Shown piece by piece: positions 16,121 through 31,487 of a DNA stretch of 32,000 bases (the stretch's first letter is position 1; each line of letters begins with the position of its first letter). The DNA is from Candidatus Lokiarchaeum ossiferum (lineage in GTDB: Archaea > Asgardarchaeota > Lokiarchaeia > Sigyniarchaeales > Promethearchaeaceae): positions 4,950,001 through 4,982,000 of the forward strand of contig CP104013.1 of NCBI GenBank assembly GCA_025839675.1, in the 5' to 3' direction. The notes beneath the pieces are model-generated. The model was not told the DNA's origin and did not search any database. It worked only from the letters and a program-made list of their open reading frames with translations. A program made the translations under genes and the position numbers.

Positions 16121-16768
16121 TTATAATTTGCTTACTTCATCTTTTTGAGATAATCTCAAATTTGAATTTAACTTGATAATATTTATTGAAACGGTTACAT
16201 CTCCTTCAGTTTTAGCTAAAATATTCCGCGCCATATCCGTTTTTTTCCGTAATCCTGGAACAAGACCATTAGGATAATCAAGTGTAAATAAATATGAATA
16301 AATTTCATCCATGTGAGACAATCCCCATAAGGCCTTTGAGAGATTTTCGTTTCTTATACAATTCAATACATAGCGACGTAATTCACCTACAACATCTGCT
16401 AATGCAAACGCATAGTCGGTTAATTCGATGCTACACTCTTCTGGTTTTGGAAAACTATCGTTAACTACGAGATTGTACAAAATTACTGCTTCTCCAAATT
16501 CCTGTTTCACAATTTGGATATAATCTTTGGAAAATGATGCGGGGGCGTCATCGAGCAATTGTTGCATAACAAGTAAGTTTTTTCTGGCTTTTTCGATTTT
16601 TGCAGGGATTGAGGAAATTTCTCCCCGATGTACATTTTTAATAATTTCACTGCACCATCGTACCGTTTGGCGTTGGATAGGTAAGAGTTTTTCACGAATG
16701 AGATCCATGGCATCAAGATGCTCTCGTAAATGTACGAATATGGGTTTTAACGGATGATTTTGTTCCAT
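16121..16768 (-). CDS. Translin family protein
   Basis: QEFGEAVILYNL, YAFALADVVGELRRYVLN, MDEIYSYL and LRKKTDMARNILAKTEGD follow the translin/TRAX family block order. A strong SD (GGGAGGAA) lies upstream. Confidence 0.8.
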   Translation of the reverse strand: MEQNHPLKPIFVHLREHLDAMDLIREKLLPIQRQTVRWCSEIIKNVHRGEISSIPAKIEKARKNLLVMQQLLDDAPASFSKDYIQIVKQEFGEAVILYNLVVNDSFPKPEECSIELTDYAFALADVVGELRRYVLNCIRNENLSKALWGLSHMDEIYSYLFTLDYPNGLVPGLRKKTDMARNILAKTEGDVTVSINIIKLNSNLRLSQKDEVSKL

Positions 16769-17666: not shown

Positions 17667-18458
17667 ATGAAATCAAAAAGAAGAAATGTTAAAAAACAGA
17701 TTTACTGGATACTCTTGGTTAGTATCTTTATTGTCAATTTTTTTCCATCCATTTCATGCATTGAGAATTTAAATTATAACTACAGACCTGATGGACACTA
17801 TCAAACACCTTTCCAGAAAATAATCTTAAATAATTCTATTGATAATTTTACTTATTCTGATGATTGTTTATACTCTTTTTCTCGAGAAAACCCATTAAAT
17901 CATACCTCTGCATTGATAATAAAGAATGAAGTAACTGATGAAGAAATCATCACCACATCCTACCCTTGGAATTATTCCATTTATGGTGTTGATTATGGAG
18001 ATCCTGATTCGCATTATTTTGGTTATAGTTCTGATCCCTCAACTTCTATTGGCTGGTATTTTGAAGAACGCTCCAGCTTTAAAACTCACGACATTAACGG
18101 TATGCTAGTATTGGGTGTTGAATTTTATTTTTATGTGGTAAATCTCACAAATGGATTAAGATTGTGGTGGTCAGTGGATATTGGAAGGGGAGATGATCAG
18201 ATTGTCTATTATAATCAAAATTCAACTGATTCATTGGCAAAATTCTTTTTTTATGATAATAATTGCCATGAAATCATCATATTTTCTTTAGAACTTCTTG
18301 GTGAAGGTGAGTATCATCCTCCCAAATACTTTGGATGGCAATATACATTTAAAATACGGCTAGAAATACTTTCTTCAATAATGGGGGTAAGTTTAGGGTA
18401 TTCTATCTTGAACATAATTATTAGGAAGAAAAAAGGAAGCAAACTCGTTATTAATTAA
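17667..18458 (+). CDS. Hypothetical surface/membrane protein (N-terminal signal-anchor, C-terminal TM plus basic tail)
   Basis: MKSKRRNVKKQIYWILLVSIFIVNFF at the N-terminus, and LSSIMGVSLGYSILNIIIRKKKG at the C-terminus. There are six N-x-S/T sequons. I recognise no family. Confidence 0.5.
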   Translation: MKSKRRNVKKQIYWILLVSIFIVNFFPSISCIENLNYNYRPDGHYQTPFQKIILNNSIDNFTYSDDCLYSFSRENPLNHTSALIIKNEVTDEEIITTSYPWNYSIYGVDYGDPDSHYFGYSSDPSTSIGWYFEERSSFKTHDINGMLVLGVEFYFYVVNLTNGLRLWWSVDIGRGDDQIVYYNQNSTDSLAKFFFYDNNCHEIIIFSLELLGEGEYHPPKYFGWQYTFKIRLEILSSIMGVSLGYSILNIIIRKKKGSKLVIN

Positions 18459-18560: not shown

Positions 18561-19115
18561 TTATTCGAAATTCTGGTCTGCTTCAATCCGCTTTGCATTC
18601 TCATAACATTGACGGGCGATTTCCATAAACATTTCTTCCACATTTGTCCCATCCTTGGCTGAAGTTTCAATGTGGGTTGCATTTAATCGACTGGTTAAAT
18701 CCTCTGCTTCTTCCCGATTAACGCGCCTCTCTTCCTCAGCAATGTCTATCTTATTTCCAATTACGATCAATGGTATATTTCCAGCTGCATTTTGCATGGT
18801 GGTGGTCCATCCTGGTAATCTAAGTAATGATTCGGGCATTGTGATGTCATATACTCCAATGGCCCCTTGACTTCCCTTAAAATAAATGTTTCGCATCGTG
18901 GAAAATTGCGCTTGGCCGCCAATATCCCAAATCATCAGACGGATATCGTTTCCCTCAATTTCAACATCTTTAATAAGGAAATTCGTTCCGATTGTCTGTT
19001 TGAGATCTAAGGAAAAAGAATGTTTAATAAACCTGAGAATTAAACTGGTTTTTCCAACATTTTGGCTTCCGAATAAGGGTATTTTGAACTTGTATTGTTT
19101 TCGCTGTGTGCTAAT
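18561..19115 (-). CDS. Rab/Ras-like small GTPase (184 aa if initiated at ATT 19115)
   Basis: My own translation upstream of the listed ATG (18935) stays in frame: ISTQRKQYKFKIPLFGSQNVGKTSLILRFIKHSFSLDLKQTIGTNFLIKDVEIEGNDIRL-MIWDIGGQ. That gives G1 GSQNVGKT, a switch I Thr, G3 WDIGGQ, G4 GNKID and G5 ETSAK. There is no in-frame ATG/GTG/TTG between the upstream TAA and 18935. ATT at 19115-19113 is preceded by GAGGAG with a 6-nt spacer. Confidence 0.8.
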   Translation of the reverse strand: MSTQRKQYKFKIPLFGSQNVGKTSLILRFIKHSFSLDLKQTIGTNFLIKDVEIEGNDIRLMIWDIGGQAQFSTMRNIYFKGSQGAIGVYDITMPESLLRLPGWTTTMQNAAGNIPLIVIGNKIDIAEEERRVNREEAEDLTSRLNATHIETSAKDGTNVEEMFMEIARQCYENAKRIEADQNFE

Positions 19116-19121
19116 GGTTAT

Positions 19122-19127
19122 CTCCTC
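19122..19127 (-). promoter_or_regulatory. Shine-Dalgarno-like GAGGAG upstream of the candidate ATT start of the GTPase
   Basis: The minus strand reads TATGAGGAGATAACCATTAGC. Other genes in the window (translin, ATPase, transketolase) show comparable GGAG-type SD sequences at similar spacing. Confidence 0.4.
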
Positions 19128-19322
19128 ATAATTTCTGTTTGTGCTGTAATCATCAATAGTTAGATTTTTTCTATAATATATTTATTTTCTTTAGTAGTAT
19201 TAAATAATCCATTTTCTAACCCTTCTGTCAATAAAAGCTTTTTTAAAAGAGGATTGAAAATAGTTGGATATTAAATAGTAGTTTAAAAAAGAGCTTATTT
19301 TGTTCCCTTCATGTTTCTTCTT

Positions 19323-20210
19323 TTAGTTCTCATGCAACAAATCAATTTCGATCAATTTAATCTCATCCACATCGCGAATTTGGCGTAATCGTTCCTTGGT
19401 CTCGTCAAAATTATCAAAATTCAGCGGATTGAGATAAACCTCATAGATACATTTTCCCCCCTGTTGACAAATCCCAGAAGTGTAAACAAACGGAAGTTGA
19501 AGTTCTTGAAAGACTATACTAATTTCCTTCAATGTATCTGGACTTAATTGCCCATTGAAAATAACCGCAATCTTCACTACCCGTTCTTGATCGTAAGGGA
19601 TAATATCTACCTTAAAATTTTCTTTCCGTTTTTGAAAAACAACAAAATAATTTTTGCGGGTTTCAATAAAAGATTCGAGATCTCGGACTATCTTGATAGG
19701 TAGGTGTAAAGATTGCTTCTTGCGAAGATCTTGAAAGGGAACCAATATTCCGTGGGTTTGGGCTTGTCCAATGGCAAAAAACTTAGCCAATATTTCAAAT
19801 TCCTTGGTGAGGTATTCGAACTCTCCCTTAATTTCTTCCTCGTAATTTAACGGGGGATTATTGATATAGAGGGCTTTATAAATCTCTTTTCGCTTTTCCT
19901 TAATGATTTTCACAAATTCTTTGAATTCATGTTCATAGGAATTAAAATTGGGGGATTCTTCTTCAATTATCTTGGTTATCATTACCATCTCTTGCTTTCC
20001 CCGCGCCCACGCAGAAGGGATCATGAAGAAATAATTTGCGGTATTAAGTTCGGCAGAAAACGCATGGGTGAAAAAGCCCGGAGTTGCTGCATCCATCAAC
20101 CGTTTAATCTGGTTAATATCATCCTCTGACACAATATCCGTAATATTTTTTGGGACGCTGTAAAGGATGTCGGGTCCGATGATGGGATTGAAGTAAGTTA
20201 AGATGAGCAT
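19323..20210 (-). CDS. Longin-like (FLCN/NPRL2/DENN-type) domain protein with a C-terminal ACT-like region
   Basis: The N-terminal LTYFNPIIGPDILYSVP resembles NPRL2 FFSEFHPTLGPKITYQVP. FFMIPSAWARGKQEMVMITKII resembles FLCN [21 protein letters not shown]. Residues ~211-290 (VKIAVIFNG..PDTLKEISIVFQEL..FVYTSGICQQ..CIYEVYLNP..TKERLRQI..EIKLIEI) read as a beta-alpha-beta-beta-alpha-beta unit. Confidence 0.55.
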   Translation of the reverse strand: MLILTYFNPIIGPDILYSVPKNITDIVSEDDINQIKRLMDAATPGFFTHAFSAELNTANYFFMIPSAWARGKQEMVMITKIIEEESPNFNSYEHEFKEFVKIIKEKRKEIYKALYINNPPLNYEEEIKGEFEYLTKEFEILAKFFAIGQAQTHGILVPFQDLRKKQSLHLPIKIVRDLESFIETRKNYFVVFQKRKENFKVDIIPYDQERVVKIAVIFNGQLSPDTLKEISIVFQELQLPFVYTSGICQQGGKCIYEVYLNPLNFDNFDETKERLRQIRDVDEIKLIEIDLLHEN

Positions 20211-20386: not shown

Positions 20387-20665
20387 TTATTTCAAACTTT
20401 TTGTAATTTCCTCCATTATAGGCGAAGGAAACTCTGCTTGATTGTTCCGATATTGGTAATTGGAGTATTGAATCTTTTTTATGAGTAAATTTTTCTTCGC
20501 CATTTCAATCGCTTGAGGTTTGGATTTTTTTCCCGACCAAAAATAGATCCGATTCTGTGTTTGATCGACCACTATTGCGATATCATCGTTTAGCAATTGT
20601 TCCGTCTGTATCCACCCCTTTTGTTGAAATTTATACACTTTCAGCTTATTTTCTTTCGTTTCCAT
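20387..20665 (-). CDS. Single-domain gelsolin/villin-like protein
   Basis: KVYKFQQKG...LLNDDIAIVVDQTQNRIYFWSGKKSKPQAIEMAKKNLLIKKI follows the gelsolin-repeat signature (LFQVKG...L.sgDcFILD.g..IyvW.G..S...E..kA...a..I). Confidence 0.7.
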   Translation of the reverse strand: METKENKLKVYKFQQKGWIQTEQLLNDDIAIVVDQTQNRIYFWSGKKSKPQAIEMAKKNLLIKKIQYSNYQYRNNQAEFPSPIMEEITKSLK

Positions 20666-20780: not shown

Positions 20781-21062
20781 ATGCTTTTCAAAAATATAAA
20801 TATCTGCGCAATGGGATGCATCGTGAAATTCCGACTCGTTTTTGAAACCACAACTAAGCATGGAAAGAAAGTGCAATTGAAGTTTAAAGTCCCCCCCTCC
20901 AAACATTTGGGCTTGATGAATTTTCTAAAGATCGCTATGGAAGGCGATGAGGACATTCAATTTGCTGTTGAAAAAATCTCTGAAGATAAACATGACCTCA
21001 GTAAAGCTAAGGGGACTTTCCGCTTAGTGCAAGATGATTCTGACGAATCGATCACCGATTAA
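20781..21062 (+). CDS. Hypothetical small acidic-tailed protein
   Basis: The ORF is 93 aa, or 83 aa from MGCIVKF at 20811. It is predicted beta-rich with one helix, and I recognise no family. It is kept as coding because it sits directly upstream of the transferase gene, ending 19 nt before that gene's preferred start at 21082 (29-nt overlap with the track ORF at 21034). Its codon usage resembles that of its neighbours. Confidence 0.4.
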   Translation: MLFKNINICAMGCIVKFRLVFETTTKHGKKVQLKFKVPPSKHLGLMNFLKIAMEGDEDIQFAVEKISEDKHDLSKAKGTFRLVQDDSDESITD

Positions 21063-21081
21063 CCCCTTTCTGGGATTTTTT

Positions 21082-21723
21082 ATGCCTTCTCGTTTCCGCC
21101 TCCGTAAAATTTTTGCCCCTGTAGTCAACTTTATGGCCAAAGGCTTTATCAAATTACAAGTCACTCCTAATATTGCCACTCTTTTGATGCTTTTTTGTGC
21201 CTGTATGAGTGCTTTGTCTTTGATTTTATGGGAGAGTTTACTATGGTATGGGATTTGGATTTTTATTACTGGGTTGATGGATGGTGTCGATGGGGCTATA
21301 GCTCGACTCACTGGTCGAAAGAGCAAATTTGGGGCGTTTTTTGATTCTTCCATGGATCGCTTGTCTGAAGGAATAATTTATTCCGCCTTATTAGTAAAAA
21401 TGGATTTGCTGTTTGATATTCCTGAAATTTGGAGCGTTCTTTTAATTGGGATGTGTTTATTATTTTCTTTTCTAATTAGCTACACTCGAGCCAGGTTAGA
21501 ATTAATTGGAAAAAGGGAAAAAATTAACTTTGATTCTAATATTGGTTTAATGGGTCGTTCGGAACGATTGTTTTACTTATTTCTCTCAAGTATGATTGTG
21601 GGATTTTTTCATATTGGCCTTCTTATTTTTATAATCACTTATTTCGTTTTAATTTTGACTACCGCCATCTATCGTTTCATAAAATATCAACAATTCATCG
21701 AGTCTATTGAAAAAAAGTTATGA
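21082..21723 (+). CDS. CDP-alcohol phosphatidyltransferase family; archaetidylinositol-phosphate-synthase-like
   Basis: The complete motif D-G-x2-A-R-x8-G-x3-D-x3-D is present in DGVDGAIARLTGRKSKFGAFFDSSMDRLSEG, with ~6 TM segments. The FGAF.DS..DR..(D/E)G variant resembles AIP/PIP synthases. Start moved from the track's 21034 to ATG 21082, which lies after the stop of the upstream ORF. Confidence 0.8.
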   Translation: MPSRFRLRKIFAPVVNFMAKGFIKLQVTPNIATLLMLFCACMSALSLILWESLLWYGIWIFITGLMDGVDGAIARLTGRKSKFGAFFDSSMDRLSEGIIYSALLVKMDLLFDIPEIWSVLLIGMCLLFSFLISYTRARLELIGKREKINFDSNIGLMGRSERLFYLFLSSMIVGFFHIGLLIFIITYFVLILTTAIYRFIKYQQFIESIEKKL

Positions 21724-21759: not shown

Positions 21760-22818
21760 TCATTCTGCTTTCGTTTCAAAAAATAATTCGATTCCCATCA
21801 AAGAGAATAGATCCTTAACATTCTCTCCCGTTTTTGCCGAAGTTTCAATAAATAAGCAATTTAATTCTTTTGCGAGAAGTCTTCCTTCTTCTTCAGTTAC
21901 TTGTCTTTCTTCAACAAGATCGCATTTATTGCCAACAATCACAATCGGTGCATCATGAACTATGCAACGAATATCTTCTAGCCAATATTTTATCCGTTCT
22001 TCAAAAGTGTTTCGTCTTGTTATATCATATAAAATAAACGCGGCTCGTGCTCCAGAATAATATGTTTTTCGTACCCGATGAAAAATTTTTTGTCCTGCAA
22101 TGTCCCAAATTATGAATTCTACGACTTTATTTTTTAATCCCTGTAAATTATTGGTCCGATTGGATATGGAAAATCCCAATGTTGGTTTATACTCTTTTTG
22201 ATATCGATTGGTGACAAATTGCTGAATTAAACTCGTTTTTCCTACGGCTTGATCCCCTAAAACACAAAATTTATACACCAATTTTTCATCTTCTGTACAT
22301 TGAAACGAGATTTTCTCCTCAAAATTCTGAAATTTACTCTTTGAAATTGTATGTGTTTTTTCTCCCACATTTAGATTGGGGATAGAAAGAGCTACTTTTT
22401 CTTCAGAATTGTCCATAAGTTGAACTATTTTTTCTGTAATCAAGAAAATGTTTGGCATTTCATCATTTATCTCTGGATCGTGTTCATATACACAGAGTAA
22501 AATTGCTTTTGATCCAGCCTCTGTGAATATAAATTTATGATCTTCTGTTTCAAACATTCCTGTACCGAAAGATCCAGGATATTCAAGTGAGATTTGTTTT
22601 AGTGTTGATTCTACACTATTCGCAACTGATCCGTAAATATTGTGTTCTGTATTTGTATTTTCCTCGTGTTTTATCTGGTTGAGAATTAAGGTTCCATCAC
22701 GTTCAAATAAATGGATCTCCAATAATCTATTTGAGGATGTTTTGAAGAAGTTTTGGAAGAGAATAGTTAACTTTTCATTAATTTTTGACATTATCTTTCC
22801 CTTTTCTTGATGCATCAA
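21760..22818 (-). CDS. Roadblock/LC7 (MglB-like) domain fused to a Rab-like small GTPase
   Basis: Residues ~11-136 follow the Roadblock pattern (LLEIHLFERDGTLI ... GSVANSVESTLKQIS ... FETEDHKFIFTEAGSKAILLCVY). Residues ~181-345 form a complete GTPase: G1 GDQAVGKTS, G3 WDIAGQ, G4 GNKCD and G5 ETSAK. An alternative start is MSKINE at 22791. Confidence 0.8.
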   Translation of the reverse strand: MMHQEKGKIMSKINEKLTILFQNFFKTSSNRLLEIHLFERDGTLILNQIKHEENTNTEHNIYGSVANSVESTLKQISLEYPGSFGTGMFETEDHKFIFTEAGSKAILLCVYEHDPEINDEMPNIFLITEKIVQLMDNSEEKVALSIPNLNVGEKTHTISKSKFQNFEEKISFQCTEDEKLVYKFCVLGDQAVGKTSLIQQFVTNRYQKEYKPTLGFSISNRTNNLQGLKNKVVEFIIWDIAGQKIFHRVRKTYYSGARAAFILYDITRRNTFEERIKYWLEDIRCIVHDAPIVIVGNKCDLVEERQVTEEEGRLLAKELNCLFIETSAKTGENVKDLFSLMGIELFFETKAE

Positions 22819-23111: not shown

Positions 23112-23948
23112 ATGCAACAAATTATTTCAACCCAGATTCCCTTAAGTTCTAATGGAATTTTTAACAATCATAAACATTATCCTCCTCTTCATATTATCAT
23201 TCCTGCATATAATGAATCTCGTTCTATCATCTCAGTAATTAGGCGCATTGAATCATCTTTAATGTTGTATCCCTACCAATTTAGGATCACTGTCATTGAT
23301 GATGGCAGTTCTGACTCAACATATGAAATATTACAAAATTCCAATTTGAACATCTCATTGAAAAAAAATCATCAAAATCTTGGTAAAGGAAAAACTATGA
23401 GAAGGGGAATCTTACAGAGTAAAAAAGAAGAAATTGTTGTTATGATAGACGGAGATGGAGAACACATTCCAGAAGATATTTCTAGATTAATAGATCCCAT
23501 ATTGACAGGAAAAGCAGACTGTGTAATTGGTTCTCGTTTTTTACCAAGAAATTCAAGTATCACTTTATCGGGTTCCTATTTAAAAAACCAAAAGAAACAT
23601 AGCTATTTCCGTAAAGCAGGAAATAATCTCATTTCCTTCTTAATTTATACGTTTTTTAGAAGATGGATCACCGATTCTCAATGCGGGTTTAGAGCTTTTG
23701 CCCCTGATATCGCAAAACTTTATAAACCTACATATTCTGGTTTCGAAATTGAAACAGAAATGACTTTGTTTTATATACTCAACAACTTTAAAATTGTAGA
23801 AATACCGATCGATACTGGCTTGAATACTCGAGAATCCCATATGAATATCTTAAAAGATAGTATGAAAATTCTCTTTGTAATCCTGTCTCTGCGATTTAAG
23901 AAATTCGATAATGTATATCAAAAAATTCGAACAAAAATATTAAAATGA
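23112..23948 (+). CDS. Glycosyltransferase family 2, dolichyl-phosphate hexose synthase-like
   Basis: IIIPAYNESRSI, ITVIDDGSSDST, NLGKGKTMRRG, MIDGDGEH and CVIGSRF are typical of the DPM1/Alg5/AglD-like GT2 layout. Confidence 0.8.
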   Translation: MQQIISTQIPLSSNGIFNNHKHYPPLHIIIPAYNESRSIISVIRRIESSLMLYPYQFRITVIDDGSSDSTYEILQNSNLNISLKKNHQNLGKGKTMRRGILQSKKEEIVVMIDGDGEHIPEDISRLIDPILTGKADCVIGSRFLPRNSSITLSGSYLKNQKKHSYFRKAGNNLISFLIYTFFRRWITDSQCGFRAFAPDIAKLYKPTYSGFEIETEMTLFYILNNFKIVEIPIDTGLNTRESHMNILKDSMKILFVILSLRFKKFDNVYQKIRTKILK

Positions 23949-25115
23949 TTCACTTTCTTCGATTATATTTTGAAAGATATCAATTCTCTCAAACCATGTC
24001 ATTTCTTTTTTCTTTTTCAAAATATTCGATTTAATCTTTTCGTAAATTCCTTCATTTTGCAATAAATAATTAACCGCATAGACTATTTCACAAGAATTTC
24101 CGGGTTTAATTAAAACCCCTGTTTTTTCATGAACTATCAATTCTTTAATTCCCCCGACATTACTACCGATAACTGGGATATTAAATCCGAATGCTTCAAG
24201 CAACACATTTGGACAGCCATCATATAAAGAAGGAATTATTATCAAATCCGCTTGTCTATAATATTTCACAATTTCTTTACTTGGTAAATAACCTCGACAT
24301 TTTATCCGAGTAATGTTATTTTCTTTAATATATTTTAATATGGAATGATATAATGGCCCATCTCCGACAATATTGAATGTTAAATCTATATGTTTTTGAG
24401 AAATTTCATGGAAAGCATTTATTAAAATTTCACTTCCTTTTAATTCCGTTAGTGACCCTACAAAAAGTATTGATTTTATTCCCTTGCGAGATAAAATAGG
24501 GGGATTCTCATCCATTTTTTCAATTCCATTAGGACTATGGGTTGATTTCGTGTTTTCTATATTGTAATATTTGGAAACGACTAAAGATTCGAATTTTGAC
24601 ACCGATATTATTTTTTCAGCCTTTTGAAACAATCTTTTTTCTAAAAAATAAATTAGAAAGTAAAAAAGTTTAAAGTAAAACTGGTAAGGCGAATCTAAAG
24701 AATTATTTGAAATTTTAGCAATATAATTGCAGCCTCCATTTTTTATTGAATAGGGTATGTTTTTTGGTGAGTAATATATCGCCGGGGATATTATGAATAT
24801 ATAATCTGGTTTTTCAGTTCTTAAATACTTTGAAATTTTTATTGAATGAACCAGATTTTGAAATAGAGGTACTTTTGGAACTTGCATTCGATAAATTTTC
24901 CACTTGGAACCAATTTCAACATAATCCTTTTTAAAAAAGGGGAGTAGTATTTCTCTTACTGGAGAAATATTAAAGGAATGCATACGATCCCCCGTTATAA
25001 TTGAAATTTCGTGTTTATATTTTAAATTTAAGTATTTAGCTAATCTATAAGCACTTTTTCCTGTACCTTTAGAGTGTGGGGGAAAATCTCCTGATAGAAT
25101 TACTATTTTTGCCAT
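23940..25115 (-). CDS. Glycosyltransferase family 4 (GT-B)
   Basis: PSLYDGCPNVLLEAFGFNIPVIGSNVGGIKELI is the GT4 C-terminal signature. The gene's 3' end overlaps the convergent GT2 by 9 nt. Confidence 0.8.
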   Translation of the reverse strand: MAKIVILSGDFPPHSKGTGKSAYRLAKYLNLKYKHEISIITGDRMHSFNISPVREILLPFFKKDYVEIGSKWKIYRMQVPKVPLFQNLVHSIKISKYLRTEKPDYIFIISPAIYYSPKNIPYSIKNGGCNYIAKISNNSLDSPYQFYFKLFYFLIYFLEKRLFQKAEKIISVSKFESLVVSKYYNIENTKSTHSPNGIEKMDENPPILSRKGIKSILFVGSLTELKGSEILINAFHEISQKHIDLTFNIVGDGPLYHSILKYIKENNITRIKCRGYLPSKEIVKYYRQADLIIIPSLYDGCPNVLLEAFGFNIPVIGSNVGGIKELIVHEKTGVLIKPGNSCEIVYAVNYLLQNEGIYEKIKSNILKKKKEMTWFERIDIFQNIIEESESF

Positions 25116-25120
25116 TATTT

Positions 25121-26236
25121 TTACTGTATCCTCTTATAGATGATCAATAGTTTTTTGATTACTTCTTTCGAAGAATAATTTAGTTCAATATCATTTCTCG
25201 CACTTTCACGCATTTTTTCTGCAAAATTTTGATCATTGATATATTTTTCCATATTATTGGATAAATTTTTCACAGAATCTACTTGAAATACCAATCCATT
25301 TCTGTGATTTTTAATTAATTGCATATTTCCTGCAATGTTTGATACTATTACTGGAATTCCAAGGGCCATTGCTTCAAGTAAAGAATTACTTAACCCTTCA
25401 CTTTCCGAAGGTAATATAAAACAGTCAAAACTTGAATATATTTCATGAGCATTGGTTTGGAATCCTTTAAGTTTTATAACATTCTCCAATTGTTTTGATT
25501 TTATATATGAATCAATTTGATTATATAATGTGCCTAATCCATATAATTGGAGTGTAATTTCACAATTTTTCTGTAGAACAATCTCAAACGCTTCAAGCAT
25601 CAAAAAGATATTCTTGACCTTCTCAAGTCTTCCTACATAACCAAAACGGGTTATTTTTTTCATTTTTTTTATGTATTTAAAGTCGTCCAGATTAATTGCA
25701 TTTGGAATCAAATGGATTTTTTCGGTAGGAACATTGTAGTTTCTTTGTAAATCTTCTTTTATTCTATTATTCAATGCCTGAAAATGATTGGAATTTTCGA
25801 TCAAAAATTTTACAAAAATTTTATCTAGAGCTTTAATCAAATGATTTTTAGTTCTTGTATTGATCAATTGATAAATTTCACCACTGATTTTAGTCATTAT
25901 TTGGGTTTTTACAAACATTTTGAAGAATATACATGGAATTATAGTAATCCCTAAAATATGAGGATTTAAAATTGTGATTTCTTGTTTCTTATTGATGGAA
26001 AATAATCTGAAAAAGGTTTGGATAACAAAAAGAATTGAATTGCTTGAAAGCTGATGAATAATGATATTATTGGAATGTGGGATATACTTGGTATATTTTG
26101 TGATTAAATCAATCTTGATTTCCTTGTGGTTTGCATAAGTTGGAAGCAAACGTAAAATTTGTTTCTCCGCTCCACCAATTCTTAAATTCTTGCCCAAATT
26201 TTCATCCGTATTTGGAATTAATATTACGATATGCAT
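25121..26236 (-). CDS. Glycosyltransferase family 4 (GT-B)
   Basis: PSESEGLSNSLLEAMALGIPVIVSNIAGNMQLI is the GT4 signature. There is a 5-nt gap to the next gene. Confidence 0.8.
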   Translation of the reverse strand: MHIVILIPNTDENLGKNLRIGGAEKQILRLLPTYANHKEIKIDLITKYTKYIPHSNNIIIHQLSSNSILFVIQTFFRLFSINKKQEITILNPHILGITIIPCIFFKMFVKTQIMTKISGEIYQLINTRTKNHLIKALDKIFVKFLIENSNHFQALNNRIKEDLQRNYNVPTEKIHLIPNAINLDDFKYIKKMKKITRFGYVGRLEKVKNIFLMLEAFEIVLQKNCEITLQLYGLGTLYNQIDSYIKSKQLENVIKLKGFQTNAHEIYSSFDCFILPSESEGLSNSLLEAMALGIPVIVSNIAGNMQLIKNHRNGLVFQVDSVKNLSNNMEKYINDQNFAEKMRESARNDIELNYSSKEVIKKLLIIYKRIQ

Positions 26237-26257
26237 TGCGTGAAACTCCTAGGCATT

Positions 26258-27655
26258 TCAGATGGAAAAATCTAAATTGGAAATAATGCATTTTCGTTTT
26301 CCAGAAGCCAGAGAAGGAATAGATTTAACCTCATTAAAAGATACATTCAGTTGATGATCTAAGTCCTTTTTTATGATTTTTATAATTTTAGTTTTTAGTT
26401 TTTTTAATTTTTCTTGGGTGGAATTCTGATTAAATACATAATTTATTTGAATATGATCCAATCTATCTTGTATGACCTGAAAATCTAAAATTGATGTCTG
26501 ATGGTAGAAAAGGAATGTAAAAAATAAACTATGTGCGAGTTTTCCTGAAGGTGTCGGCATAAAATCTGATTTACGACCGTGTATTGTCTTCAAACGTTTT
26601 AAATTTCTTCCACATTTACATTTATGATTTGAAAACTCACCAATATCTTCATTTTGATATCTTATAAATGGAAACGTGTAATTAACTAAGTCTGTGAGAA
26701 TAATATGCCCAATTTCCGAGTTTTCTTTTTCCTTTTTTATTTCAACATGTCGTATCTCTTCACTAATATGTAAACCATCTTTATATTTGCATTCATGTGC
26801 AATACTCGATATCTCTCTACTCCCATAGCTATTAAATACATTCGTTTGGAACATTCTTTCAATAGTGTTTCTCATTTCGGGGTATAAATTTTCTGCGGCA
26901 GATTGAATATTAAATTTAAAATGACTGCAATCAAAGTTATTTTTTTCCAAAAATTGAGCAAAAGTATTAAGTGCATTTGCGTAGCCTATTAATATTTTTG
27001 GCTGGAACTTGGTAAGTTTATTGTAAAAAGATTGCATTTTATTTTGATCCATACTAAAAGAATTTAAAAAAATCTCTCCAGATACTAATTCGCGAAATCC
27101 TTGAAGTTTTCTATCCTTAAAATTCATATAATCTTTATGCGATCCCCAAATATATGCCTTTTTTTCCCATAAGTGCCAATCACACCATTGAAAGTGTCTT
27201 AATCGATCAGCAAATGTCCAAGTATGATAATATCTATCTTGAAAAAAATTCAAGGGGTTTCCTGTGGAACCACCTGTGGAATTTTGATATTCAGGAGGAT
27301 AAGCAATAAATTTGGAGTGCAATTTGTGAGAATTTTTCTGAATTTCGCTTTTTGTTATTATAGGAAGAATTTCTTCAAAAGATTCAATATCTTTAATATT
27401 GGAAATTCGAATTTTTAATCGCTCAATAAGTTCTTGATAAAATGGATTATGTTTAGAACAGAAACGCAATAATTTTACTATTTTATCATATTTTAATTCA
27501 TATATTTCTTGTTCTGAATAATATTGGGTTTGATTTAAAATGTTGAGATATTTCAAATAATTTTGCTTTTTAAAAAGATTATTATTATAGAGGTGCATCA
27601 TTTTCTTCCTCAAATTGGATTGAATGAGATCGAAGCTTGAATTATTTGAAACCAT
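26258..27655 (-). CDS. Adenylate-forming ligase of the PaaK/CapK/F390-synthetase family
   Basis: NSTGGSTGNPL (the T/SSG-S/T-TGxP AMP-binding loop), YGSREIS (YGxxE) and FPFIRYQNEDIG (the RYrtgD motif) are present. Confidence 0.7.
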   Translation of the reverse strand: MVSNNSSFDLIQSNLRKKMMHLYNNNLFKKQNYLKYLNILNQTQYYSEQEIYELKYDKIVKLLRFCSKHNPFYQELIERLKIRISNIKDIESFEEILPIITKSEIQKNSHKLHSKFIAYPPEYQNSTGGSTGNPLNFFQDRYYHTWTFADRLRHFQWCDWHLWEKKAYIWGSHKDYMNFKDRKLQGFRELVSGEIFLNSFSMDQNKMQSFYNKLTKFQPKILIGYANALNTFAQFLEKNNFDCSHFKFNIQSAAENLYPEMRNTIERMFQTNVFNSYGSREISSIAHECKYKDGLHISEEIRHVEIKKEKENSEIGHIILTDLVNYTFPFIRYQNEDIGEFSNHKCKCGRNLKRLKTIHGRKSDFMPTPSGKLAHSLFFTFLFYHQTSILDFQVIQDRLDHIQINYVFNQNSTQEKLKKLKTKIIKIIKKDLDHQLNVSFNEVKSIPSLASGKRKCIISNLDFSI

Positions 27656-27791
27656 TTTTGATTATTCTAAATTAAGTTATGGACTTAAAATTTATTAGAT
27701 GAATTTTATTTCACAATTCAAAAAAAAAAGATACTATCTTAAAATATCCTGGATTGAACCAAATGAGAAATTTCAGATTCATATTACAAGA

Positions 27792-28799
27792 TTACGAGGT
27801 TATGTGAATACTATTCAAATATTTTATATTGGGAATTAACCATCCAACTTGGAATTTTTTTTTTTTTAAGTATTTTACAGCCAATAGCAATAAATTTTCT
27901 TTAAACAAGCAAAAGAAAGGCTTTAGTAAAAAAGAATTGATAAATATGAAAATATAACTTTCCAATCTTTTGGATTGGATTGCGATCGATGCAAAATAAA
28001 ATTTATTGGCTAATTTTAAACTATTATTCATTAATAATCTAAAGGCTAAATTATTTAATTGATAAGAGAGAATTTCAGGATATTTGTTATATTGAATATA
28101 ATTTTTTATTAGAATTTTCAAAATACCCCTCACTTTTTTAAAATAATTTGATGAAATACTTTGATTTTGAATATAATAATTAACTAAATGTTCATTAACG
28201 AATTTTATTTTATATTTCTGAATTAATCTTATCCACAAATCCCAATCTTGTGCTGAATCTAAGTTATCATCAAATCCATTTACTTCATGGATATATTTTG
28301 TTCTAATCAAGGGGTAACTACAGCTGCCTATAAAATTAGTTTCTAATATTTTTTTTTTGGGGTTTTTTATTTGGGCAGGCAATTTTTTCTCATAAATAAT
28401 TTGGTTTGATTCGAGTTTTTTGATAAAACCGCAATAAACTATGCCTATTTCAGGAGAATTCATATTGAAAATTTGATATTGCTTCATGAGTTTATTTGGG
28501 AAAAATTCATCATCATCATCCAAAAATGCAATATATTTTCCCTTAGCTAGTTTTATTCCTAAATTCCTTGCTGCTGGTGCTCCATGTTTACCTTTTAAAC
28601 TTTGGAAAATGATGTTTTTTTCTTTAAAAATGCCTAATTCTTCTTGTACACTATAATCTGAATGATCATCTATGACAATTATTTCAGTAGATGGATAATT
28701 TTGACGAATTACGCTTTTTATGGCTCGTTTCAATTGTTTAAACCTGTTATGGGTCGGAATTATAACTGATATAAGTGGATATTCCATGAGAATTTCCAT
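27792..28799 (-). CDS. Glycosyltransferase family 2
   Basis: ISVIIPTHNRFKQLKRAIKSVIRQNYPSTEIIVIDDHSD, APAARNLG and AFLDDDDEF (the DxD motif) are present. The track start is TTG 28823. ATG 28799 (MEILMEYPL) is preferred. Confidence 0.85.
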   Translation of the reverse strand: MEILMEYPLISVIIPTHNRFKQLKRAIKSVIRQNYPSTEIIVIDDHSDYSVQEELGIFKEKNIIFQSLKGKHGAPAARNLGIKLAKGKYIAFLDDDDEFFPNKLMKQYQIFNMNSPEIGIVYCGFIKKLESNQIIYEKKLPAQIKNPKKKILETNFIGSCSYPLIRTKYIHEVNGFDDNLDSAQDWDLWIRLIQKYKIKFVNEHLVNYYIQNQSISSNYFKKVRGILKILIKNYIQYNKYPEILSYQLNNLAFRLLMNNSLKLANKFYFASIAIQSKRLESYIFIFINSFLLKPFFCLFKENLLLLAVKYLKKKKFQVGWLIPNIKYLNSIHITS

Positions 28800-28905
28800 T
28801 ACCCTATTTATTTCTTTATTCAAAATTAATTTTTTTCATTTATTACTTGAACTACTACTTGACATCGTTTTACTATTTATTTTCCCATGAATTGATCCCA
28901 AACAA

Positions 28906-30405
28906 TTATTTCATAGAAAACTCATCTTTTAATCCTTTTTTATAATTTTTTAAGTTGAATAAATCCAAAAAGAATGAAATATCATCCCTATTAATAAAAT
29001 GGCATATTATTAAGCTTATAATAAAAAAAATAAATGATATTAGCGAAGATAATACAAGAAGAATGAGTTGTGACTCAATAACTTCGATTAATAAGTATTT
29101 CAGTAGATAACTGATTAAAAATGTCAAGAAAGAAAGAGGTAATATGAAAAATAATTTGTTTTCACCTTCAATACCAAAATATTTTTTAGAAAAATATCGA
29201 TAAAATGCATAATCAATGATATTGAACGTCAAATTTAAAAAACAATAACCAATTACTCCAAATCCAAGCAAATTTATCCCCCATATGTTTTCCGGAATTA
29301 TGATCACAATTAGGATTAAAAAACACACACTTCTTATGGAAAGATATCTTGAAATTACTCCTTGTTTCTTCCCTGCATACAAATGCTTATTGTAAGGCCG
29401 ACTCAAACTGCTGAATAATGGAATAAAAACTAAGATTTGCAAAATTGGGATGGAATCTATATAATTTGGTAAAAAAATTTGGAAAGCGATTTCTGCATTT
29501 AATAATGTGAGGATTGCCACCGCACAATAAAAAATCGCAGAATATTTTTCGATTTTCTGTGTCATTTTTTGAATTTCTTTGTATTTATTGTTGACAAACC
29601 ATTTCGCAAAATAACTCTCGTATATTACACCGATCGATAGTGTCACGGTGGTTAAAGTTACGATTATAAATGATTTGACGAAAAAATAATAAGCAAATTG
29701 TTCTGTTCCATAAAAGTGATCAATTATTAAATTTCCAATATTATCATTGAAGATTAGAATTAAAGATGTAAAAATGAGTGGTTTAGTTTCTTTCAACAGC
29801 TGGAAAATTCTACTTTTAGAGATTTTCGTTCGAGTTCTTTCTCCTTTAGATATGTAAAGTGTAAAAAATAGATTAATTCCAGCAAATAATAGTGATACCG
29901 CACCATATACTATTAATGGGTTCGAAAATTTGTTTAAATTGATCGAGATAATTGTTTTTACTATTGCGTTCAAAAAACCAATTACAAAACTTGGAATTTC
30001 GGCTTTATATATTTTCAATTTTGCTCTGAGGTGAGTATTTACAACAATTGAATATTTTGTTATTAATTCAGTTAAAGAAATGAGCAGGAAATATCCTTTA
30101 TATTGAAAATCAATTAAGAAAATGAAAAATAAGAGAGAAATAAATGATAAAAATATAATGGACAATTTAATAAACATAAAATTTGAATAATAAGATTCAA
30201 AATTGGAATCTCCACTATGTTGAATATAAATGGATTCAATTCCAATTGATAAGAACATAGTGAATATTCCAATATAACTCGAAACTTCTCCAGTAACTCC
30301 CATTAATTCTAATGACAAGTATTTTGCAAAAAAGTAGGCCGCAAAGATGTTTAGAAACTGAAGTCCTACCTGAAAAATCATTCTAATTATAAATTTATCC
30401 TTCAT
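28906..30405 (-). CDS. Polysaccharide/oligosaccharide flippase (Wzx-like, MOP superfamily)
   Basis: The protein is ~500 aa and almost entirely hydrophobic, with a dozen or so predicted TM segments by eye. The N-terminal FAKYLSLELMGV resembles the PST-family AR.L.pe.fG motif. It is embedded in the glycosyltransferase operon. Start moved from the track's 30477 to ATG 30405, which avoids a 64-nt overlap with the upstream gene. Confidence 0.7.
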   Translation of the reverse strand: MKDKFIIRMIFQVGLQFLNIFAAYFFAKYLSLELMGVTGEVSSYIGIFTMFLSIGIESIYIQHSGDSNFESYYSNFMFIKLSIIFLSFISLLFFIFLIDFQYKGYFLLISLTELITKYSIVVNTHLRAKLKIYKAEIPSFVIGFLNAIVKTIISINLNKFSNPLIVYGAVSLLFAGINLFFTLYISKGERTRTKISKSRIFQLLKETKPLIFTSLILIFNDNIGNLIIDHFYGTEQFAYYFFVKSFIIVTLTTVTLSIGVIYESYFAKWFVNNKYKEIQKMTQKIEKYSAIFYCAVAILTLLNAEIAFQIFLPNYIDSIPILQILVFIPLFSSLSRPYNKHLYAGKKQGVISRYLSIRSVCFLILIVIIIPENIWGINLLGFGVIGYCFLNLTFNIIDYAFYRYFSKKYFGIEGENKLFFILPLSFLTFLISYLLKYLLIEVIESQLILLVLSSLISFIFFIISLIICHFINRDDISFFLDLFNLKNYKKGLKDEFSMK

Positions 30406-30413
30406 ATTATCAT

Positions 30414-31487
30414 CTATTTTTGCAAAGTTTCTCTGAATATTTTCTTTAGTTGATTTCCTATTTTTTTTGGCGTACAATACTGAAGATATGTTTTATATCC
30501 TTCATGAGCAATTTTGGTTCTCAATATTGAATTTGTATATAAAGTAAGAATTGAATTTGCAAGTGATTCTGGATCTTCCGCTTTACAGAGTATTGCATTA
30601 TGTCCGTTTGTGAATAACTCCCGAATTGCTGGGTGATTGGATGATATAATTGCCTTTTCCAATGCTATTGCAGCATAAATCTTATTTGGAATTACAATCT
30701 GAGACTTAATAGAATTACCAAAAATACCCAAAATGATATCCGCTCTATTCAATTCATTGATCAATTGAGTTTCTTGCATGAAAGGAATTATTTCTACATT
30801 GTTTAAATTATTTTTTAACTTGAATTCAAGCATTTCTCTGAACAGAATCTTTTTTGGATTTCCGCCGATTATTTTAAAATGGATTTCAGTTTGATTTAAC
30901 AAAATTTTTGCAGCTTGGAATATAATCGGTATTCCTTGTAATGGAATATAGCTACCAAAGAAAGTAACTTGAAAATGTTGAGTTTTTGATTTTGAAATGC
31001 TATTTTCTTTTTCATAATCAGAACCAACGAAAACTCTGTGAATTTTTGATTTTGGTACTTGAATTTCTTCTGAAAAATAATTTCCATGGATCTTGGTGTC
31101 CGATATTAGTACATCGGCCATATTAAACGATAGGTTTTCAACAAATCGCAAGATATTTCCACGTAGACTATGTTTCGGAAACATATGGTAGTCGTTTACT
31201 TTAGTATTATATTGTGATATCAGCGGGTCATAAACAATTTTCTTTCTCTTTACACATTTGAGCAAAAGTGCTATGGGCATTGCTAAAATACTTGCTGGAA
31301 ATCCAATAAATATGATGTTATATTCTTCATTTAATGCTTTTTTAAGAAGCAGCCATTTTCTTTTGAAACTCCTTACATTGAAAATGTTACAATGAATTAC
31401 TTCGATTGAGTTTGCTTGTAATCCTTTCAAAATTATTCTATTTCTTGAATAATTTTGATGATAGGAACCAAAAAATAGTGCTTTCAC
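30414..31487 (-). CDS. GT-B fold glycosyltransferase (GT4-like)
   Basis: The C-terminal VIPNKIYAAIALEKAIISSNHPAIRELFTNGHNAILCKAEDPESLANSI matches the donor-binding half of GT-B enzymes. The N-terminus is MKALFFGSYHQNYSRNRIILKGL. It has a 4-nt ATGA overlap with the upstream gene. Confidence 0.6.
   Translation of the reverse strand: MKALFFGSYHQNYSRNRIILKGLQANSIEVIHCNIFNVRSFKRKWLLLKKALNEEYNIIFIGFPASILAMPIALLLKCVKRKKIVYDPLISQYNTKVNDYHMFPKHSLRGNILRFVENLSFNMADVLISDTKIHGNYFSEEIQVPKSKIHRVFVGSDYEKENSISKSKTQHFQVTFFGSYIPLQGIPIIFQAAKILLNQTEIHFKIIGGNPKKILFREMLEFKLKNNLNNVEIIPFMQETQLINELNRADIILGIFGNSIKSQIVIPNKIYAAIALEKAIISSNHPAIRELFTNGHNAILCKAEDPESLANSILTLYTNSILRTKIAHEGYKTYLQYCTPKKIGNQLKKIFRETLQK

Follow-up and report, generated by a model that had tools for sequence, protein, structure and literature searches.

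A Roadblock domain precedes a Rab-like GTPase in a single gene of Candidatus Lokiarchaeum ossiferum, an ordinary member of the Asgard RG class

Dey, Thattai and Baum 2016 (PMC4917890), who summarise Klinger et al. 2016, report that Lokiarchaeum has Ras-like GTPases to which Roadblock domains are fused. Tran et al. 2024 (Commun Biol, PMC10933270) modelled all 74 small GTPases of the strain MK-D1, found 26 of them to carry Roadblock or longin domains, and listed the MK-D1 'RG' proteins, including WP_147664993.1. They report that the switch II insert of GR architectures is absent from RG architectures, that no MK-D1 small GTPase has a terminal cysteine, that small GTPase genes generally do not lie in operons with Roadblock/longin genes, and that the switch I arginine of MglA is absent from the Roadblock-fused GTPases. 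In their hands, AlphaFold2 (AF2) yielded typical Roadblock or longin dimers for the fused GTPases of MK-D1, and the fusions were taken as a sign of a functional Roadblock-GTPase interaction. Liu et al. (bioRxiv 2020.10.19.343400) described abundant Roadblock/longin and GTPase asCOGs with domain shuffling, and stand-alone Roadblock and longin proteins number dozens per Asgard genome. Here, we describe a gene of Candidatus Lokiarchaeum ossiferum that lies at 21760..22791 on the minus strand of a stretch of 32,000 nucleotides (the window), which spans positions 4,950,001 to 4,982,000 of contig CP104013.1 (assembly GCA_025839675.1). Its product, hereafter the RG protein, is an ordinary member of the catalogued Asgard RG class. 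A first-pass annotation of the locus had implied that the fusion was new; the Roadblock-GTPase architecture was already published in 2016 for Lokiarchaeum and in 2024 for MK-D1, and its distribution and the functional inference drawn from it are also in the literature. The window adds a well-verified instance and family-level detail, not a discovery. Two family-level details given below, the Ile-Pro linker motif and a size of at least 86 clusters at 50% identity, are not stated in the available parts of the papers of Tran et al. and Dey et al., and our literature search found no biochemical study of any RG protein.

Compared with the described systems, the RG protein is closest in layout to its MK-D1 counterpart. 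WP_147664993.1 has the same order, an N-terminal Roadblock domain followed by a C-terminal small GTPase, with neither a switch II insert nor terminal cysteines, and its published rows (...VGKTSL..., ...YKPTLG.SITN... and ...FLETSAKSG..ENV...) share the motifs of the RG G domain. The class as a whole is restricted to Asgard archaea, as is this protein, and no architectural difference separates the two; what we describe is the Lokiarchaeum set of orthologues and paralogues. The Rag/Gtr GTPases (RagA-D, Gtr1/2) likewise join a small GTPase covalently to a Roadblock domain, and the Rag C-terminal domains 6u62_B and 8fw5_D match the RG Roadblock model. However, the order is reversed, as the first-pass annotation had pointed out: the Roadblock domain is N-terminal here and C-terminal to the G domain in Rag/Gtr. 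Moreover, the RG G domain is Rab/Ras-like (Ras 162 bits, no Gtr1_RagA match), and the gene has no linked partner of the Ragulator type. From the Rag/Gtr precedent, Roadblock-mediated dimerisation is the expected organising principle. MglA/MglB also pairs a Roadblock protein with a Ras-superfamily GTPase, and the MglB structures 1j3w, 3t12 and 6h5b were among the best Foldseek matches; yet the two Mgl proteins are distinct chains whose genes share an operon, whereas the RG protein is encoded by a single open reading frame (ORF) and its G domain has a canonical DxxGQ and Rab-like switches. With the stand-alone Rabs (Rab6, Rab14, Rab2 and Thorarchaeota 7EZB), the G domain shares 35-42% identity, a TM-score of up to 0.95, intact G1-G5 motifs and the catalytic Gln. 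In contrast to them, the RG protein carries an extra 170-aa N-terminal part made up of Roadblock domain and linker, has no hypervariable tail or Cys prenylation motif, and matches the RabF motifs only partly when these are read by eye.

The gene model was settled from the ORF list and from comparison with orthologues. In this AT-rich window (GC 26-41%), a minus-strand frame runs unbroken over 21760..22818, with 352 codons from a TTG start. The N-termini of all close orthologues fall within a few residues of an internal ATG at 22791, and the database gene call P0001 (343 aa, starting MSKINEK) begins at the same codon; because the two agree, 21760..22791 was taken as the likely coding sequence, of 343 aa plus stop, and residues are numbered from this start unless stated otherwise. 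At the syntenic position of a second, independent complete genome, CP163304.1 (assembly GCA_041410205.1), lies an orthologue of 343 aa, which aligns with 97% identity and 0 gaps; another protein of that genome, P0003, bears the NCBI label Candidatus Lokiarchaeum ossiferum. A Logan contig carries the same gene arrangement as the window and the same uninterrupted 343-aa frame. The ratio of nonsynonymous to synonymous substitution rates (dN/dS) against the CP163304.1 orthologue was 0.09 overall; taken separately, the Roadblock part gave 0.08 and the G domain 0.05. Purifying selection acts on both domains. Sixty-five full-length homologues align end to end with the RG protein.

These data bear on whether the fusion could be an artefact, in which a sequencing or assembly error, or a recent frameshift in the linker, turned adjacent Roadblock and GTPase genes into one. 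No support for such a merger was found, and the one soft spot is that the linker is predicted to be disordered and is poorly conserved past residue 140. Across 22280-22410, where a frameshift or assembly join would leave two separate genes, the frame is open throughout, the CP163304.1 orthologue is gap-free, and the linker contains neither a stop codon nor a start codon with a ribosome-binding site in this ORF. The same 343-aa frame is uninterrupted in the second complete genome and in the Logan contig, an Ile-Pro motif is conserved inside the linker, and at least 86 clusters from independent metagenomes have the same architecture. On the gap-free 97% orthologue, these clusters and the dN/dS of 0.09, we rejected an artefact or frameshift, to which we give practically no chance. 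The two domains are covalently joined in one polypeptide from one continuous ORF, as first proposed, and the locus is almost certainly one genuine gene with the identity and architecture described here. The gene is monocistronic.

The Roadblock/LC7-fold domain occupies residues 1-127 (22411..22791, minus strand). The Pfam scan that had been suggested as a check on the first reading was clear for Ras (E-value (E) 9.1e-48) and divided for Robl_LC7 (PF03259). On the single 179-aa N-terminal piece, Robl_LC7 reached E 0.054 and 13.7 bits, below the cut-off of 23, but it was matched at E <= 0.01 by 25 of the 65 aligned full-length homologues, with a best value of 5.4e-11; MAPKK1_Int/LAMTOR3 was matched by 8 of the 65. 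Because the single-sequence score was sub-threshold, the domain was assigned on family and structural evidence. A word-indexed search of a set of 5.8 billion proteins with the N-terminal 170 aa alone gave no matches, probably for want of exact words in common, and homologues were retrieved with the full-length sequence as query. A family profile built from 25 N-terminal regions was compared with the solved chains of the PDB, where it matched the Thorarchaeota Roadblock 7f8m (E 2.4e-8) and the MK-D1 Roadblock3 9jue (5e-8), and also 7yh1, Streptomyces CvnB5 3leq and MglB (E 0.01).

The AF2 model of the N-terminal region has a mean predicted local distance difference test score (pLDDT) of 81.7 and the topology α-β-β-α-β-β-β-α, with helices (H) and strands (E) at H3-18, E23-30, E35-40, H47-70, E77-81, E85-92, E96-103 and H108-127. 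The leading helix before β1 in this model is a Roadblock and not a longin feature, as the longin order is β-β-α-β-β-β-α-α. When the model was searched with Foldseek, the best 50 solved structures listed were all of the Roadblock fold, with probability 1.0 and E down to 9e-7; they included the MK-D1 Roadblock2/3 homodimers, MglB, MglC, Ragulator/LAMTOR subunits and Rag/Gtr C-terminal domains. The N-terminal domain is thus a Roadblock fold by family-level Pfam matches, family profile and AF2/Foldseek comparison, which bears out the first-pass annotation. The boundaries given there (Roadblock at residues ~11-136, then a linker of ~45 aa) fit the AF2 model, in which the Roadblock domain spans residues 3-127, the linker runs to ~166 and the G domain starts from 169. 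The domain is acidic, with an isoelectric point (pI) of 4.8.

The Rab-like small GTPase domain comprises residues 170-343 (21763..22284, minus strand), as delimited by Pfam Ras, PDB search and Foldseek. Pfam Ras (PF00071) covers residues 183-341 of the 352-aa ORF with 162 bits, compared with an Arf score of 52 bits (E 6.5e-14), and Gtr1_RagA (PF04670) gave no Pfam match in the RG protein at E <= 0.1; in 47 of the 65 relatives, Gtr1_RagA matches are weak and secondary to a far stronger Ras match. All G motifs were found on the minus strand by motif scan and compared among the 65 homologues. The G1 motif or P-loop GDQAVGKT (22234..22257) has G179, V183, G184, K185 and T186 invariant, and the switch I Thr of G2, in KPT (22180..22188), corresponds to the invariant T204. 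In the G3/switch II motif DIAGQ (22090..22104), D230 and G233 are invariant and the catalytic Q234 is conserved in at least 90%. The guanine-specificity motif G4, NKCD (21919..21930), has N288, K289 and D291 invariant, and G5, SAK (21832..21840), lies in a stretch where T317, S318 and A319 are invariant. The GTPase is therefore complete by motif, as the first reading had it for G1, G3, G4 and G5, with G2 in addition.

Among PDB sequences, the 60 best matches listed (lowest E 5e-35) were without exception Rab, Ypt or Sec4 proteins or, from Thorarchaeota, the Rab 7EZB. Foldseek with the G domain of the AF2 model returned Rab6B, Rab4 and Rab8 with target TM-scores of 0.88-0.95 and identities of 31-42%, and the top 50 matches listed were all Rabs. 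The domain is 41% identical to Rab6, its switch II aligns without gaps to that of Rab14 and has no insert, and it is mildly basic (pI 8.6). The RabF motifs that Pereira-Leal and Seabra are said to have defined in 2000 are IGVDF, KLQIW, RFRSIT, YYRGA and LVYDIT. At these positions, the RG protein reads LGFSI, EFIIW, IFHRVR, YYSGA and ILYDIT by eye, a good match for RabF4-5 and a partial one for RabF1-3. The protein ends in ...GIELFFETKAE, with its last Cys, in NCLFIETSAK, ~30 residues from the end; a CC, CXC or CAAX prenylation motif and a hypervariable tail are absent from the C-terminus. Judged by sequence and structural similarity, the G domain appears closest to Rab when set against Ras, Rho, Ran, Arf and Rag, and its motifs mark it as a predicted nucleotide-competent domain without a lipid anchor. 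As there are no terminal prenylation cysteines, we call the protein Rab-like and not a true Rab.

Between the domains lies a linker of ~42 aa, residues 128-169 (22285..22410, minus strand), delimited by pLDDT and homologue alignment. AF2 models its first 10-12 residues at a pLDDT of ~80, so that the first third is predicted to be ordered, and predicts disorder for the remainder, with pLDDT <50 at residues 150-166. An Ile-Pro motif (22378-22383, minus strand) sits at the linker start, right after Roadblock helix α3, and its proline, P138, is conserved in at least 90% of the 65 sequences and invariant in the 12 closest. The length of the linker varies among orthologues, and the N-terminal regions of homologues span 137-207 aa.

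The extent of the family was assessed by an exhaustive hidden Markov model search with the Roadblock-region profile over 1.84 billion representatives, with clusters formed at 50% identity. The search returned 449 clusters, 123 of them at E <= 1e-10. Among the best 150, the Roadblock-then-GTPase order was exactly that of the RG protein in 86, and 4 more had a Roadblock domain directly before a GTPase within larger arrangements (RGG, GRG, GRRG); the rest were mostly short fragments or free Roadblock proteins. Stand-alone Roadblock proteins of ~110-145 aa are also detected by the profile. All full-length relatives with a name belong to Asgard lineages (Lokiarchaeum ossiferum, Harpocratesius, Promethearchaeota/Promethearchaeia, Hel-, Thor-, Hod- and Hermodarchaeota), and matches confined to the GTPase reach other Asgard lineages and a few metagenome-assembled genomes (MAGs) of Thermoplasmata and Methanomassiliicoccales. 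Within CP163304.1, P0003 is a second RG protein, a paralogue of 59% identity that is encoded beside an esterase at a locus unrelated to the first (L001:6001-7038; CP163304.1 38195-51232). As this genome holds both the 97% orthologue and the 59% paralogue, the RG family has been duplicated within Lokiarchaeum.

A genuine RG gene whose Roadblock domain serves as a dimer platform is, in our view, the best explanation overall, and we regard it as moderately probable; the mechanism taken by itself, which is argued by analogy, has about an even chance of being right. According to this proposal, the Roadblock domains of two chains would pair into a canonical Roadblock dimer, with contacts through the β-sheet edge and α2 as expected from homologues, and the dimer would serve as a platform to which two Rab-like G domains are attached by long tethers. 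This platform, which is acidic, would dock on the basic G domain, at or near its switch face, and docking would couple the nucleotide state to the conformation of the platform, comparable to the MglB dimer on MglA and the C-terminal Roadblock dimer of the Rags. The platform might also supply the surface for localisation and partner binding that eukaryotic Rabs get from prenylation. A homodimer is the most economical model, because every structural homologue works as a dimer presenting a platform to a GTPase, and the top structural matches of the Roadblock domain (the 9jue homodimer, MglB, LAMTOR and the Rag C-terminal domain) are all dimeric.

The full-length monomer was also modelled with AF2 and reached a predicted template modelling score (pTM) of 0.82 despite the disordered linker, a value that indirectly suggests a defined packing of the Roadblock domain against the G domain in the model. 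Taken with the opposite charges (pI 4.8 versus 8.6) and the Ile-Pro motif, it is compatible with a Roadblock-G contact in cis or in trans alike, and through any face. The first-pass annotation had called the fusion an obligate regulator-switch unit. The suggestion is sensible, and Tran et al. 2024 (PMC10933270) draw the same conclusion for the MK-D1 fusions. Two points weigh against the dimer-platform mechanism. A GTPase-activating protein (GAP) mechanism of the MglB type may not transfer to the RG protein and is doubtful, because MglB activates through the switch I arginine of MglA, which Tran et al. (PMC10933270) describe as absent from the Roadblock-fused GTPases of MK-D1. In addition, MglB and MKD1-RB are proposed to bind membranes through a basic face, whereas the Roadblock domain of the RG protein is acidic.

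The same monomer model can be read differently, with one Roadblock domain folding onto the G domain of its own chain in a 1:1 arrangement, where it would act as a built-in GAP, guanine nucleotide exchange factor (GEF) or auto-inhibitor and make the protein a self-timed switch that needs no dimer. The pTM of 0.82 with a disordered linker is consistent with packing in cis, the ~42-aa linker is long enough for the chain to fold back, the charges of the domains are complementary, and the monocistronic gene lacks a conserved partner. Nevertheless, every solved Roadblock protein matched here is dimeric, it is as a dimer that MglB acts on MglA (structure 3T12), and the Roadblock domain offers no residue to which catalysis could be assigned. 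We consider such a cis regulator unlikely.

A role in scaffolding or localisation only is rather unlikely as well. Here, the Roadblock domain would heterodimerise with a free Asgard Roadblock or longin protein in the manner of Ragulator, the heterodimer would bring the Rab-like switch to a patch of membrane or into a complex, and external GAPs and GEFs would control cycling. Potential partners exist in the dozens of stand-alone Roadblock/longin proteins of Asgard genomes, some of which (~110-145 aa) the Roadblock profile itself detects, and a protein without prenylation cysteines needs some other targeting device. On the other hand, a partner gene was linked in none of the genomes examined, and the Roadblock domain is acidic and not basic. 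The boldest extension, which we regard as distinctly improbable, is that the RG protein is an autonomous, self-regulating Rab-like switch, in which the Roadblock dimer would be GAP/GEF or state lock, comparable to the cross-talk within Rag dimers, and the Ile-Pro motif an allosteric coupling element, and which would represent an ancestral 'GTPase on a Roadblock platform'. If this were true, the eukaryotic Rag-Ragulator and Rab-longin/Roadblock-GEF arrangements would later have been split or permuted from the RG design.

Asgard small GTPases and Roadblock/longin platforms are central to the debate on the origin of eukaryotic membrane-trafficking regulation, and the covalent fusion of a Roadblock domain to a Rab-like GTPase is the clearest genomic evidence that both modules work together in Asgard cells. 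The RG protein is a convenient one-polypeptide system in which control of a Rab-like switch by a Roadblock platform can be tested, and as Candidatus L. ossiferum has been cultured, such experiments are feasible.

The neighbourhood of the gene was compared with other RG loci. On its 3ʹ side, the RG gene converges with a gene for a CDP-alcohol phosphatidyltransferase (21034..21723, plus strand), and a family-2 glycosyltransferase (GT2) gene (23112..23948) is divergent at ~320 nucleotides from its 5ʹ end. The latter belongs to a run of glycosylation and polysaccharide genes that adjoins the RG gene at 23112-31487 (GT2, GT4, a 371-aa ORF, a gene for a 465-aa protein, GT2 and a Polysacc_synt_3 flippase-like gene). 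On the same strand as the RG gene and 1.1-3.2 kb downstream, with oppositely oriented genes between, lie a 92-aa ORF (20387-20665, minus strand), the gene for a 295-aa protein (19323-20210, minus strand) and a stand-alone Rab-like GTPase gene (18561-19181, minus strand). Further along are a 263-aa ORF for a predicted secreted or membrane protein with no Pfam match (17667-18458, plus strand) and a Translin-family gene (16121-16768).

The first-pass annotation had placed the fusion 1 kb from a longin protein and from the stand-alone GTPase. This neighbourhood is not significant. The distance to the 295-aa protein is 1.55 kb, and its longin identity was not confirmed by any Pfam, PDB-profile or Roadblock-profile match. 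The linkage is absent at the syntenic sites of MK-D1 and Harpocratesius, where an unrelated 389-aa gene and an inositol-phosphatase/APS-kinase gene, respectively, take the place of the RG gene, and the Harpocratesius orthologue has other neighbours. When 11 window neighbours were searched by tblastn against the P0003 and Harpocratesius RG loci, none was conserved; apart from the RG gene itself, the search hit only the RG G domain, with the stand-alone GTPase as query. An operon or module that would unite the RG gene, the stand-alone GTPase and the 295-aa protein was considered and rejected, since neighbours differ at all other RG loci compared. A six-frame scan found no further Roadblock domain of the RG family in the window.

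The 295-aa protein is of interest in its own right. It is highly conserved in Lokiarchaeia, is 71% identical to MK-D1 DSAG12_01826, and has a conserved Cys-rich motif at its C-terminus (G246, C248, C254...). Across genera, in MK-D1 and a distant relative, its gene stays linked to a stand-alone Ras-like GTPase, and the protein is a candidate conserved GTPase partner. It has no Pfam match, a 16-sequence profile gave no PDB sequence match, and no profile-profile similarity to the Roadblock alignment was seen. In Lokiarchaeum strains, the 92-aa ORF lies directly upstream of the 295-aa gene; its match to a Gelsolin repeat is weak (E 0.007, below cut-off), and it may be a single-domain Asgard gelsolin.

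In the stand-alone GTPase gene, no ATG, GTG or TTG lies in frame ahead of the P-loop, and its first canonical start, at 18935, would delete G1 and switch I. A canonical start is likewise missing in CP163304.1 and MK-D1 (L085:5030-5650; L088:7427-7984), and all three genes keep 'GAGGAG AT[A/C] nnn ATT AG' just ahead of the G domain, while a distant relative (L092) uses ATG. From the sequences, this suggests conserved non-AUG initiation (ATT, ATA or ATC) behind a Shine-Dalgarno-like GAGGAG; a frameshift from a short upstream ATG ORF is less likely. The window and the Logan contigs L084 and L086 have the neighbouring 263-aa ORF, which is absent from the otherwise syntenic CP163304.1 locus (L085), so that a strain-specific indel of ~0.9 kb lies between the GTPase and ribulose-phosphate 3-epimerase genes. 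Finally, seven of the GTPase-only tblastn matches (L036, L037, L049, L054, L064, L068 and L078), found in Promethearchaeota and in MAGs of Thermoplasmata, Methanomassiliicoccales and Methanobacteriota, spread ~165 query residues across 1.2-1.5 kb of DNA, which suggests a large insertion inside these Ras-like GTPase genes, possibly an intein or an inserted domain.

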